A stretch of DNA of 64,000 bases. Origin: Eremomyces bilateralis CBS 781.70 (lineage: Eukaryota). Position 1 is the first letter of the stretch. Every line of letters begins with the position of its first letter. The notes under the pieces are model-generated. The model was given only the letters and a program-made list of their open reading frames with translations. It did no database searches and was not told where the DNA came from. The DNA is taken from the NCBI GenBank assembly GCA_010015585.1, contig ML975149.1; one strand, 5' to 3'. A program made the position numbers and the translations under genes. Shown here piece by piece: positions 1 to 5,558 of the stretch.

Positions 1-488
1 CCAGCGCCGGGGTGTCGCCGCCGCCACCGCCGCGGAGCACGCGCGACCGCGACGATCGGGGCCGGCGGGTGAGCGGCGGGGGCCACTATGATCGGGAAAG
101 GAGGGAACGGGAGGCGGAGCGGGAGCGGCTGTATGTCAACCGGGGGGATCCAAGGGAGCGGAGCAGTGAGTTGGATTATGGGGATTCGCGGTCGGGGAGC
201 GTGCGGAGGAGGAGGGAAAGCGATGCGGAGAGTTTGGGGAGTCGGCGGGAGGTGAAGGTGAGTGGCATTCCCGGATTTTTTTTCCCGCGAGTTTCTAGAG
301 AGGGTGGGCTGACGTGCTGGAAATAGCGAACACGACGCGAGCATGAGGTTCGCGAACCGGCGCTCTCCCCGCGCGAGTCGAAGAACCCGCGGAGGTCGCG
401 GACGAGAACGCCGGCGCCGCTGCCGAAGGAGGATCCGGCGGGTGGGTATAAATCAGGGAGCGAGGAGGGCGAGATCGAGGAAGATTGA
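1..488 (+). CDS. 3' end of a gene encoding an Arg/Glu/Ser-rich (RS-like) C-terminus; identity unknown, starts upstream of the window
   Basis: Open frame to 257; phase-0 intron 258-326 (GTGAGT..GCTGAC..TAG); last exon RTRREHEV...GYKSGSEEGEIEED, TGA at 486-488. Confidence 0.7.
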
Positions 489-1416
489 GGGGAATCATGG
501 AGACAATGGGGATCACCTTGCTGAAAGAGTCGTGGGCTTCGAGAAGGCCATCAGAGCGTTTTCAGAGTGGAGTTGACCGGTGAGTGGATACGTAAATCAT
601 GAACTGCTTCACACGCTACTCATCTGGATCCGCACCGGGCGAAGAAAATAACGGGGAAAACGCAATGGCTTCTTTTGCGTCGTTGTCGTCCTCCTCGATG
701 AAGCGCGATGGGTTCGAGGGAGGGGTTGTTGGGACCGTGTATGTTGTTCCAATTACCTTCGCACCTTTTTTTGCAGGTTTATCAAAAGTTTTAATTGCCC
801 CAGGCATGCAGCAAGCGCACAATTCATGGTCCAGTAAGAAGACGCGAGAGAGAGACACGTATCGTAGCACGCACGACCAGACCATGTTCGGATCTCGGGC
901 TCACAACGCGAGAGGAGACGTGAGACATCCCACGACGTATGTCAGCTGGCAGAGGAATGTTTGCATTCTAATCTACCTCATAGTGAAATATCCTGTTGCC
1001 TGGAAAGGAAAATTCATGTCTCCAGCGAGTGAACAATTGGTCGGTGAGAATCTCAAACAAGCATCCGAACGGTAAGTTGTCCCATCCGTTCTTCCATCTG
1101 GCACCCCCCGGCGCGTCAGGCAACTCCACACCCTCCTGTCGCCCGCGCCCTCCCTTCGGTTGACGAAGGGAGGATCTCATCATCCATGTGTCCCCGACGC
1201 TCTACCAGCCAGGGCGGACCGCATCCGCGCGAGAATCTTCAAGAGCACGCCTCTCTATCTCGGTAGCCGTCGAGGATCGTGTCATCATCGTCGTCCGCAT
1301 CGTCATCGTCGCTGTCTGCTTCCCCAGTCGCCGACTTTTGGCCACTGCCCGATTTTTTAGTCTTGCTCTTCACGCGCTTGCGCGAGGAGCGCTTCTTGGA
1401 ATCATCCGAGGCGTCT

Positions 1417-3606
1417 TCAACTATCATCTTCTAGGAAGAACTGTGGGAGGGAAAAGGTCAGTGGTGAATCTACGGAGGTGGGTTCCCGAGAGTACTTACG
1501 TAGTTTCCGCCCAACTTCTGCTCCTGGTCCAACTGGCTGCCAGCCTTGTTGATCCGCGGGCGGTAGCTGGTCGGATCGCGGCGGAAGGTGACGTCGAGGT
1601 TCTTGAGGAACTTGTTGCAGCCCGTCAGGAGGCTCTCCGGGGTGTTGGCACGGGCCTTGATGGCCGGCTTCCCGTCGAACACGATGACGCGGTCAGCGAG
1701 GTAGGTGGCCATGATGAAATCGTGCTCGACGACGAAGGCGGTCTTCTTCGCGTGCATGATGAAGCGTTTGATGACGCGGGCGGCCACGATACGCTGCTCG
1801 GAGTCGAGGTAACTGCAAACTTGTTAGATAGGCAATCAATATAATCTGTGATGATACTTACGCGCTCGGTTCGTCGATGACGTAGATGTCGGCCGGCATT
1901 CCCAGTGCCAGAACGATGGCGACACGTTGCAATTCACCACCGGACAGATGCTGCACCTCCTGGTCGATGAAGTCGTCGATCTTCAGCGGCTTGTAGACAT
2001 CGGTCTGGAACTGCGGGCTAATGAACGCGGACTTGATCTTCTTGAAGAAGAGCTGGCGCACGGTGCCCGTGAACTTGGGCGTGATGGTCTGCGGCTTCAT
2101 GCTGATGCTCATCTTCGGGATGCGGGTGGTGCCGTCGGGGGTCTCGTAGCCGGCCAGCATACGGCAGAAAGTCGTCTTTCCGGTGCCGTTTTCGCCCATC
2201 ATGACGATGATCTCGGAGTCGGTGAATTGACCGGTTTCCACGAACAGCTGGAACGAACCGAGGGTCTTCTTCATCTTCGGGTAGCTGTATGCGTGGGCCT
2301 TGTCGATCAGGAACTCCTCGCCACCCTCACCGACGCGGAATTGCAAGGATTCATCACGGAAACGCAAATTCTCGGACGGGATGAAGCCGTCAAGGAAGTG
2401 GTTGATGCCCTCTCGGACGGAGGACGGCAAAGCGACCACACCATAAGCAGCGGGCTTGCCGTAGAGCACGCAGACGAAGTCGGACAGGTAGTCGAGGACG
2501 GACAAATCGTGCTCGACGACAATCACGTAGTCGTCGGTGCGAAGCAGGCCCCGAATCATGCGAGCGGCGTTGAGACGCTGCTTGACATCCAAGAACGAAG
2601 ATGGCTCGTCGAACATGTACACGTCGGCTCGTTGGACGCAGACCATGGCGATGGCGAACCGCTGCAATTCTCCACCGGAAAGGTTGGAGATGTCACGGTC
2701 CAGAATTTCCTTCAGCTCTGTGTAGGTGTTAGTGATTGTTTGACCACCGGACCATGATGAACTTACCAAGCTCTTCAATGATTTCATCCTTGTTCTCCAT
2801 CTGTGACTGCTTGTTGATAAGAGCCCTAACGGTGCGCTCTTGGCCCGGTCGGATGGCCTTAGGAAGTTGGTCCACATACTGAGGCTTGATAACAGCCTTC
2901 AGGTTGTCTTCGAGGATCTTGGTGAAGTAGTCTGATTGAAGTCAGCCAAGCAATATCGGGCAGGGCCACGCAACTCACTCTGCAACTCGGATCCACGGAA
3001 GTACTTCAGGATCTCCTCCCAGTCCGGCGGGTTGTCAAACCGTCCCAGATTAGGCTTGACCTTGCCGCTGAGGATCTTCAACGCCGTGCTCTTTCCAATA
3101 CCGTTTGTCCCGACCAGTCCCAGCACCTGCCCGGGGCGGGGCATCGGCAGGCGATGCAGTTTGAAGCTATTCGCCGAGTATCGGTGGGTGACTTGGGTCT
3201 CGAGATTGGTGGGCAGATTGATGATATTTATAGCGTCGAAGGGGCATTTCTTCGGGCAGATACCGCATCCAATGCAGAGACGCTCCGAGATGAAGGCGAT
3301 CTTCGACGTGGCGTCCACTTCGATGCAGAGCTTGCCGGTTCGAACCACAGGGCACGACTTCTTGCATTCTTGGCGGCATTTCTACAATAGCATTAGAATA
3401 AGCATGATAGTGTGAGTGCGGAGAACTACCTTAGGTTTGCACTATTCAGAGGAGTGACGAGTCAGCGTATTGCTAGAGGTAATGGATTTGGTGAGAGTGT
3501 TTACCTTGTCAGAGCTGACAATAGCAATCCTATAGACGACAACCGTTAGAATATGTCACTTATTTGATCAAAGGAAGGGTATTCACCTGGTAAGTCTGTC
3601 TGCCAT
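1417..3606 (-). CDS. RLI1: ABCE1/Rli1 ribosome recycling ATPase (Fe-S domain plus two ABC domains), multi-exon
   Basis: Spliced N-terminus [26 protein letters not shown] from 20/25/12-nt coding exons; [13 protein letters not shown]e-S motif; Walker A GTNGIGKS and [16 protein letters not shown] twice; last exon FFLEDDS-TGA (1440-1417). Confidence 0.97.
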
Positions 3607-4292: not shown

Positions 4293-5558
4293 ATGGAGCG
4301 TCAGATTACGCCAGATCGGCCGATTAGGCGCGAGGAATATACTACAATCCAAAAATCGAGGTTTTTCGAAGCCTATGATAGCCGTACCGCAGATCAACCA
4401 TTGTCAGACATCCTCCGCAAGCTCGACCTCCCTCGGCGTACAGCAAATTACTGGCTTTCTCAACGCCGTCGTATTGGAAAAGAGGCTTACCGACGAACGC
4501 GCCCTAACAGCGACCGATTAGGGCGACGCCGCGCTATTACATCTCCTCAGTTAGATGCTATTGTATCTTCACAGAACCCTATAAGAGAGCTTCCATATGA
4601 AGCGAATATCACGCATTTCAATCTCGATATTACAACCGGTCGCGCCCTCCATAACAATCTAAAAGATCGACGGGATGCAGGCCGTTTCGTTGAACAGCAG
4701 GGGAAACCCGTTTCTCCTCGGAATCGCAGGCTACGGGAGGACTATGGCCGCTTCGGAAGAGAACAACCTCTTATCGGCTATTGAGACTCAATTGAATTTA
4801 CAGACGAGATGCACTACGATCCTTCGGAGCAGCCGAAACAGTGAATTATACGCCAAAAAGGTACACGTTATAATTCGGAGAATCTTCAAAAGCGGCCGCA
4901 GAAAACGGGCGTTGCACTTCATATTGCTGCGTCTTGCAATTGGTACTCAAAGAGCAGTCTTATCTTCTATCACGACAAGTCTGAGGATCTTCCAAAACCA
5001 CGAAGGCCTAGAAAGCCTAGGCAAAAACAGACTGAGACAGACGAACAGTTCCCTTCTAGATTGCAAGAGTGGAAGGCAAGAATACCTCACGAGATTCAGG
5101 TCAAACGGAAGGGGAATTCTATGACCCAGGAGCATTATGCTAAGCATATTCTCCCAGCCTATATCGCGCGTATTGAGGCTGCTCGTTTATACCACCGCGG
5201 ATCGTTCGGTGCTGACGTCTGTGGACCATTTATGATGTTACAAGAGGATAACGATCCATCGCACGGTACACAGTCATTTAACGTCGCGTCGGCATTAAAA
5301 CATGCCCATTGGATTACATGCATAAAGCATCCACCACAATCCCCAGACCTAAACCCGATTGAAGCACTTTGGGGGATCCTAAAGCAGAGTGGACGCAAAC
5401 GGGTATGGCGATCGATTACGGAGCTGAAGCAAGTCCTAATTGATGAATGGGACAAGATCTCAATGGAAGAGGTACGCGCTAGGATCGCAGAGATGCCGTC
5501 TAGATGTCAATTACTTGTAGATAGCAAGGGGAACATCGTAAAAACTGCGCTGTGGTAA
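4293..5558 (+). pseudogene. DDE transposase interrupted by two in-frame TGA codons
   Basis: One frame from ATG 4293 to TAA 5558 with TGA at 4782-4784 and 4842-4844; catalytic D (4803), D (5247), E (5361), with 37 residues between the second D and E. Confidence 0.9.

Follow-up and report, generated by a model that had tools for sequence, protein, structure and literature searches.

A second open reading frame (ORF), called here the tail, abuts the stop codon of RLI1, the gene for the ribosome recycling factor Rli1 (ABCE1), in the window analysed in this study, a stretch of 64,000 nucleotides (nt) from contig ML975149.1 of Eremomyces bilateralis CBS 781.70 (GenBank assembly GCA_010015585.1). 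We found a conserved ORF behind the RLI1 stop in related loci, with coding-type constraint, a variable frame relative to RLI1, a missing AUG and an RLI1 stop codon that is retained in the mRNA. Comparison of these sequences makes it, in our judgement, about an even chance that the frame at 1430-1239 is a diverged member of a family of AUG-less peptide ORFs which abut the RLI1 stop and are read by ribosomes carrying on past it. The features on which the argument is built are as follows.

1417..3606, minus strand: RLI1/ABCE1 gene with several short fungal-type introns, start codon ATG (3606-3604), stop codon TGA (1419-1417)
1441..1499, minus strand: last RLI1 intron, 59 nt, GTAAGT..CACAG, phase 0, the canonical acceptor of which is used in an RNA-like contig
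1417..1440, minus strand: final RLI1 exon, encoding FFLEDDS and TGA, with the same C-terminus in related loci
1239..1430, minus strand: tail ORF in the +1 frame, K-MIVEDAS...REACS, 63 codons followed by TGA (1241-1239)
1431..1433, minus strand: TAG shutting the tail frame upstream, the AG of which is the distal acceptor of an earlier annotation
1425..1427, minus strand: non-conserved ATG of the tail frame, preceded by A at -3 and arising within two RLI1 Asp codons (GAT GAT)
1353..1400, minus strand: basic stretch of the tail (SKKRSSRKRVKSKTKK), corresponding to the basic middle of the relatives' tails
1281..1322, minus strand: acidic run of the tail (EADSDDDDADDDDD), corresponding to the relatives' acidic end ..EE..S(D/E)EDDD(E/P)DD

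Judged by its exon translations, the minus-strand host gene is RLI1/ABCE1, with a 4Fe-4S domain at the N-terminus and two ABC ATPase domains behind it. The translations contain the Pfam domains Fer4 (4Fe-4S) and ABC_tran, and the exon of 284 amino acids (aa) matched yeast Rli1 (7a1g_x) at E=1e-144, with residues 208-492 covered. The first-pass annotation of this DNA had placed the last intron at 1499..1441 with the acceptor CACAG leading to FFLEDDS*, a second acceptor, TTCTTCCTAG, 10 nt downstream of it which opens a 63-codon tail, and an ATG at 1427 shortly before the normal TGA. Re-reading of the sequence bore out all of these positions, the tail being read from 1430 and the ATG (1427-1425) standing 5 nt ahead of TGA 1419-1417. 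Past the RLI1 stop the tail ORF has 59 codons (1418-1242), and its frame is open from -11 onwards, behind the TAG. The encoded peptide runs through SKKRSSRKRVKSKTKK ... EADSDDDDADDDDD and then 13 further codons to its end.

The sole public run with this stretch (X1) holds a contig of 5185 nt that skips exactly 1441-1499 and 1813-1861. This contig is transcript-like because it is spliced, though the run record is not marked as RNA. It joins 1500->1440, i.e. it uses the canonical acceptor (CT..AC on the plus strand), and it is unspliced through 1440..1000 and beyond; contigs drop rare variants, and this one can show neither rare junctions nor transcript ends or strand. The main mRNA therefore retains the RLI1 stop with the +1 tail behind it.

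The RLI1 C-terminus of the window reads GGNY-FFLEDDS*, and the end GNY-FFL(E/D) is common to the related loci. The length of the C-terminus before the stop varies in L051, L005, L016, L017, L024, L026, L028, L030, L032 and L036 (numbers with L denote the related loci). Variants such as FFLEDGDKSS*, FFLEDVEKSS* and FFLEEDKSTSS* occur, as well as a Lys-rich FFLEDKEDKKDAKKPMPSTKSS* in L051, and Ser is the last residue in most loci.

A proposed peptide ORF family behind the RLI1 stop

The relatives are 80 loci on metagenome contigs that encode the last large RLI1 exon. The junction analysis leaves out L037, L050 and L054, in which the match stops short of the exon end, and L041, the contig of which ends before the stop. 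The fungal-like loci with a readable stop number 50 (L001-L052 minus L037, L041 and L050, plus L076). Seven were dropped: L006, L010, L011 and L015, the tails of which are identical to that of a kept locus, and L052, L045 and L048, which nearly duplicate L022 and L046. No tail is present in L047 and L049, members of other lineages. The final set consisted of 41 loci and the window, i.e. 42.

In nearly all of the 50 fungal-like loci, about 44-142 open codons directly follow the RLI1 stop; in the 41 retained loci the abutting ORF has about 44-124 codons. The common layout of the peptide comprises a start with [VL]EKG[IV]PK, a basic stretch and an acidic end (GLPDEEACSDEDDDEDD, ...DEDDDEDD or SEDDDPDI), behind which a stop codon stands in most loci. 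The nucleotides just past the RLI1 stop are highly conserved (AGT TGA ARAGGGCATCCCAAAG). Intron style and RLI1 similarity suggest that the host lineages are filamentous-ascomycete-like.

When all six-frame ORFs in the 80 loci (6972) were scanned with a profile of the 41 tails, matches at E<=0.01 were obtained in 46 of the 50 fungal-like loci, most of which had also trained the profile; the informative part of the scan is that there were no matches elsewhere. All matches fell on the stop-abutting ORF of the strand that encodes RLI1, the misses being L005, the truncated L012, L047 and L049, and none of the 27 other loci (yeast-like or other eukaryotes) was matched. A profile search of 1.84 billion proteins yielded 134 cluster representatives at E<=1e-3 (eight at <=1e-10; best 1.3e-15). 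Nearly all of them are ORF calls of 42-157 aa which match from their first residues at the EKGIPK motif. Ten representatives were checked; each of them originates from a metagenome or run assembly and is either named 'hypothetical protein' or unnamed. Word-limited protein searches agreed with the profile search, and none of their 12 matches came from NCBI or UniRef. Pfam assigned no family to the 41 tails and gave two sub-threshold single matches only, and no usable match to the tail was obtained from the ESM Atlas. The tails appear to form an unannotated conserved peptide family.

The window tail is probably a weak, diverged member of this family of stop-abutting tails, and its position adds weight to the assignment. 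Members were taken to be ORFs on the RLI1 strand that start about -11 to +14 nt from the RLI1 stop, and the window tail conforms to this rule. A leave-one-out profile made of the tails of the 40 relatives was applied to the 1571 six-frame ORFs of at least 25 aa in the window, and the tail was its sole match (E=2.8e-4; the next ORF 1.7). The profile aligned its basic and acidic part, and alignments with members of the family, P0043 among them, cover the entire tail. Used alone as a protein query against proteins of near lengths, the window tail gave no match. In a tree of the RLI1 last exon, the window was grouped with L009, L023 and L027 (support of 83 in the Shimodaira-Hasegawa-like approximate likelihood ratio test, SH-aLRT), where degenerate starts (EKVFF, EEVF) occur too.

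Frame and stop context at the junction

Relative to the RLI1 stop, the tail lies in frame +1 in 27 of the 42 loci, in +2 in 11 and in 0 in four. These differences stem from indels of 1-4 nt in the GAAAAGGG run past the stop. The frame differs even within supported clades, i.e. L031/L040 (SH-aLRT 95), L005/L016/L017 (90) and L003, L008/L020 (88); the tree, a quick one based on 312 nt, is otherwise poorly resolved and requires 11 frame changes. An in-frame ATG near the junction is present in only seven of the 42 loci. Ten loci have a tail frame that is closed by the RLI1 stop or by another stop at most 11 nt upstream, and nine of these 10 have no later ATG. Ordinary initiation is therefore excluded there, and access must be gained by ribosomes that have translated the RLI1 ORF.

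From this pattern we infer translation of the tail, its route and any feedback. The tail ORF would be located in the 3′ untranslated region (UTR) of the mature RLI1 mRNA and be reachable only via the RLI1 ORF, since the AUG is not conserved, an upstream stop is frequent and any of the three frames is used. Most probably, ribosomes that are poorly terminated or recycled at the RLI1 UGA would continue into the tail. By one route, an unrecycled 80S ribosome would start again no further than about 10 nt from the stop and produce a free peptide; by the other, frame-slipping read-through would produce an Rli1-tail fusion. In the window, the ATG at 1427 could additionally serve the restart. Both routes should rise when Rli1/ABCE1 is short, so that tail translation would serve, on the very mRNA of RLI1, as a readout of insufficient Rli1, and feedback could act via the peptide or via ribosomes clearing the 3′ UTR. 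Such feedback on Rli1 supply is suggested by analogy with plant eRF1 and bacterial RF2. Tentative, and on balance rather doubtful, is the further proposal that the RLI1 mRNA of filamentous ascomycetes carries a built-in recycling gauge, i.e. an AUG-less ORF translated only by unreleased ribosomes and adjusting Rli1 supply. The stop/restart recycling sensor suggested in the first-pass annotation fits the comparative pattern best; it would have to be widened to an AUG-less restart or carry-on in any frame.

We consider it unlikely, though less so than the other alternatives, that a lineage-specific programmed recoding joins the basic and acidic tail to the C-terminus of Rli1 in a minor isoform. 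This would mean a +1 frameshift at AGU UGA A in the +1 lineages (the window included), read-through in the frame 0 loci and another shift in the +2 loci. The stop context is unusually uniform: the RLI1 stop is TGA in 40 of the 42 loci, the next nucleotide is A in 39 and the last codon is AGT in 21. The strong conservation of AGT TGA A hints at a signal more specific than a frame-blind accident, and the nucleotides past the stop are highly conserved as well. In the excerpted text of a study on human cells, ABCE1 depletion gave a fusion product in the +1 frame (PMC7544199), and in-frame acidic ABCE1 tails in L062 (...DDDDDFDDI*), L066, L072 and L075 suggest that such a tail can be useful. However, three distinct shifts are required, including a -1/+2 shift in 11 of the 42 loci, and close relatives differ in frame. 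No known slippery heptamer is present, and RNAalifold found no consensus pairs in the region -12..+78 of 40 loci, the alignment of which is poor past about +25. Frame 0 of the window is shut four codons after the RLI1 stop. The relatives thus show neither the fixed +1 relation nor the stimulatory 3′ RNA structure of an RF2/antizyme-type frameshift, and programmed stop-codon read-through would serve only the four loci with the tail in frame 0. The in-frame acidic tails of the four non-fungal loci favour a fusion, while the lability of the frame favours a frame-blind event. Editing of the stop from A to I was set aside, as it would serve frame 0 only.

A natural stop-less fusion of RLI1 and the tail in one frame was not found either: a search of 7999 longer candidates gave one match, which reads through an unspliced intron. 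P0022, P0112 and P0139 were likewise rejected as natural fusions; they read through the unspliced last intron and are artefacts of gene calling on genomic contigs. P0147, which also joins the C-terminal part of RLI1 to the tail, is assumed to be an artefact of the same kind.

The four loci with in-frame extensions (L062, L066, L072 and L075) are non-fungal eukaryote-like, and their acidic ABCE1 extension follows FFY. The ends (...DDDDDFDDI*, ...DDFDDI*, ...DEDDI* and ...EEDDDDL*) resemble the out-of-frame ends of the fungal tails (...DDDPDI*, ...DEDDI*). We take them to be similar to the C-terminal DIDDI motif of eIF1A.

Coding constraint and splicing

The ratio of nonsynonymous to synonymous differences per site (pN/pS, Nei-Gojobori) in the tail frame of 16 pairs was 0.32-0.64 (pooled 0.51), compared with 1.04 and 1.20 in the shifted frames; the alignments were protein-guided and lean towards the guiding frame, which reduces the weight of these values for translation. 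Nucleotide-only alignments of 10 pairs gave 119/108/223 mismatches at codon positions 1/2/3 (p=2e-12), and the bias held both ahead of the acidic run (95/82/165) and inside it (6/5/32). Stops are present in both other sense frames in all 41 loci. The comparison with relatives supports the earlier impression that the tail looks coding. A shifted frame with synonymous-biased change in relatives, which the first-pass annotation had named as a check, was found, and its offset from the RLI1 stop varies. A gene antisense to the tail was rejected, the antisense frames being stopped in 27-30 of the 41 loci. AlphaFold predicted no fold or secondary structure for the tail (pLDDT, the predicted local distance difference test, 65.7; pTM, the predicted template modelling score, 0.17), a result that would suit a short charged peptide. 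The acidic end as a cause of intrinsic ribosome destabilization was set aside, this effect being ascribed, in the excerpted source, to N-terminal acidic runs, while 35-60 residues precede the run here.

Besides the uniform stop context, several observations weigh against the reading of the tail as a translated family member. The profile score of the window tail is weak (18 bits, with a bias of 10), its EKG[IV]PK start motif is replaced by EDASDD, and BLASTP with the tail of L001, the locus closest to the window in the RLI1 last exon, gave a non-significant E=49. Among 200 dinucleotide shuffles of the 330 nt past the window stop, 41.5% contained at least 59 open codons in some frame. Across the relatives, the ORF length reached p<=0.05 in only four of 41 loci, with a mean of 71 codons against 45 in the shuffles. 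Internal gaps had a length of 3n in 15 of 40 cases (p=0.34), many of the others being compensating pairs of +-1 or +-2. The absence of RNA consensus pairs reported above belongs to the same side. The argument for translation is drawn from substitution patterns, and the rate of reinitiation or slipping of about 0.5% in human reporters, as given in the excerpted text of PMC7544199, is low for a selected peptide.

Some of these observations would also be expected if the region were an untranslated, conserved, purine-rich and stop-poor 3′ UTR element, acting e.g. in protein binding or mRNA stability, with the open frame and the peptide likeness as by-products. We regard such an element as improbable. 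ORF lengths within the range of shuffles and gaps without an excess of 3n are in line with it, and so are the acidic run, which is a GAN repeat at the DNA level, the post-stop motif, which is conserved as nucleotides, a peptide known from its sequence and the failure of AlphaFold to predict a fold. On the other hand, third-position mismatches are twice as frequent as those at the other positions, outside the acidic run too, and a pN/pS of 0.51 was obtained in the tail frame only. A stop stands directly past the acidic run in most loci, and the codons of the start motif differ at their third positions (GGC/GGT; CCA/CCG/CCT/CCC). Moreover, the peptide frame is preserved despite the indels of 1-4 nt that move it relative to the RLI1 stop, and the other sense and antisense frames are stopped to the extent given above.

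The first-pass annotation had also proposed an isoform made by the distal acceptor, and we found no support for it as a route into the tail. According to this reading, the distal AG (1432-1431), or a second frame-compatible AG at exon offset 13 (1429-1428), would be used in some transcripts to give an in-frame isoform Rli1(...GNY)-KMIVEDAS.... Both AGs yield the tail frame with no intervening stop, and some frame-compatible downstream AG exists in 19 of the 25 intron-bearing loci. Of the junctions 1500->1430 and 1500->1440, the comparison of which had been recommended, the X1 contig has only the latter, rare isoforms being invisible in contigs because these drop rare variants. The compatible AG is, however, mostly an AAG made by Glu-Asp/Glu codons, so that the AG at offset 13 is a consequence of Leu-Glu-Asp/Glu, and no such AG is present in six of the 25 loci. 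In the window, the first AG lies 17 nt past a CTGAC branch-point-like site, and the conserved FFLE residues would be lost by the distal splice.

Loci without the last intron also speak against this isoform. In at least 11 genomic loci the intron is missing and the shifted tail is kept. L016, L018, L021 and L048 contain an unbroken RLI1 ORF of 611-651 codons, then a stop and then the shifted tail. L046 and L048 lack the intron that is present in L045 between identical flanks, and thus represent the spliced form of an L045-like gene. Since the tail is kept in intron-less loci and the spliced transcripts retain the stop, an alternative acceptor is not the general route, and we consider its use very improbable. 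Retention of the intron was rejected as a route as well: its frame fits in nine of 25 loci, as often as expected by chance, and the intron is open in none of the 25.

Known systems and neighbouring features

The proposed carry-on of ribosomes past the RLI1 stop resembles events described when the recycling factor is scarce. In yeast depleted of Rli1, unrecycled 80S ribosomes restart at most about 10 nt from the stop with no AUG preference (PMC5972666, summarising Young 2015). As excerpted, that reinitiation shares with the tail a start near the stop, independence of AUG and the use of any frame, so that the tail is consistent with it without being proof of it. The yeast events depend on Rli1 supply, according to the same excerpt; for the fungal tail, Rli1 dependence is a proposal. 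They also differ from the tail in being, as the excerpt describes them, a genome-wide accident with unconserved products, whereas the tail would be a conserved peptide on the recycling factor's own mRNA. By the profile scan, the tail is absent from yeast-like RLI1 loci. In human cells, limiting ABCE1 causes frameshift-prone read-through that gives C-terminally extended fusions, in or out of frame, and ribosome passage through the 3′ UTR relieves nonsense-mediated mRNA decay (NMD) and stabilises NMD-sensitive mRNAs (PMC7544199, as excerpted). Unlike the tail, these findings come from reporters and knock-down, and the excerpted text mentions neither a conserved extension nor one on the ABCE1 mRNA. 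The restart AUG next to the stop in termination-reinitiation of the calicivirus/victorivirus type has a possible counterpart in the window ATG 5 nt before the TGA; an ATG occurs here in only seven of the 42 loci.

Bacterial RF2, encoded by prfB, is autoregulated by a +1 frameshift. The plant eRF1-1 gene is autoregulated by a circuit of read-through and NMD (PMC5397192, as excerpted). In both circuits the stop on the factor's own mRNA is bypassed and the bypass reports the activity of the factor, as is proposed for RLI1. They differ from the tail in their fixed frame and in that the bypass yields RF2 itself or protects the eRF1 mRNA, and no separate conserved peptide is known to take part. If the gauge is true, ABCE1 would join the short list of termination factors with an activity-sensing mRNA (RF2, plant eRF1), and the tail would be the first selected function of 3′ UTR translation by unrecycled ribosomes.

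In fungi, glycolytic enzymes acquire cryptic peroxisomal C-terminal extensions via alternative splicing or read-through. Like the tail, these extensions, which carry peroxisomal targeting signal 1 (PTS1), are conserved short additions past an annotated stop that are reached by species-specific routes. They comprise only a few residues in frame 0 or behind a defined splice, in contrast to 44-124 codons in three frames for the tail, and the intron-less and spliced RLI1 mRNAs retain the stop.

A full-text literature search, most subscription journals excepted, returned no description of a conserved ORF past the RLI1/ABCE1 stop or of such a circuit, and either may have been published. The review of PMC5972666, in its excerpted text, still asks for the purpose of the peptides made by 3′ UTR translation. 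If the tail is kept under selection, it would provide a concrete test object for the purpose of 3′ UTR translation after failed recycling.

Upstream of the RLI1 promoter region, the plus strand of the window carries an Arg-rich ATG ORF of 163 codons (4293-4784) with no Pfam match. Downstream of RLI1, at a distance of about 1 kb, blastn detected blocks that are conserved in many loci (window 84-184 and 391-492), and a block of about 31 nt (456-486) is 87-94% identical in about 10 loci. The blocks lie inside or close to a plus-strand ORF rich in Arg, Asp and Glu (3-326), for which Pfam gave no match when 3-323 was searched. The conservation of these blocks makes the convergent neighbour gene appear syntenic. 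The X1 contig extends about 3 kb past position 1000, beyond the start of the window, and thus covers RLI1 together with its convergent neighbour; this reflects either transcripts that overlap at their 3′ ends or a fusion of the two during assembly.

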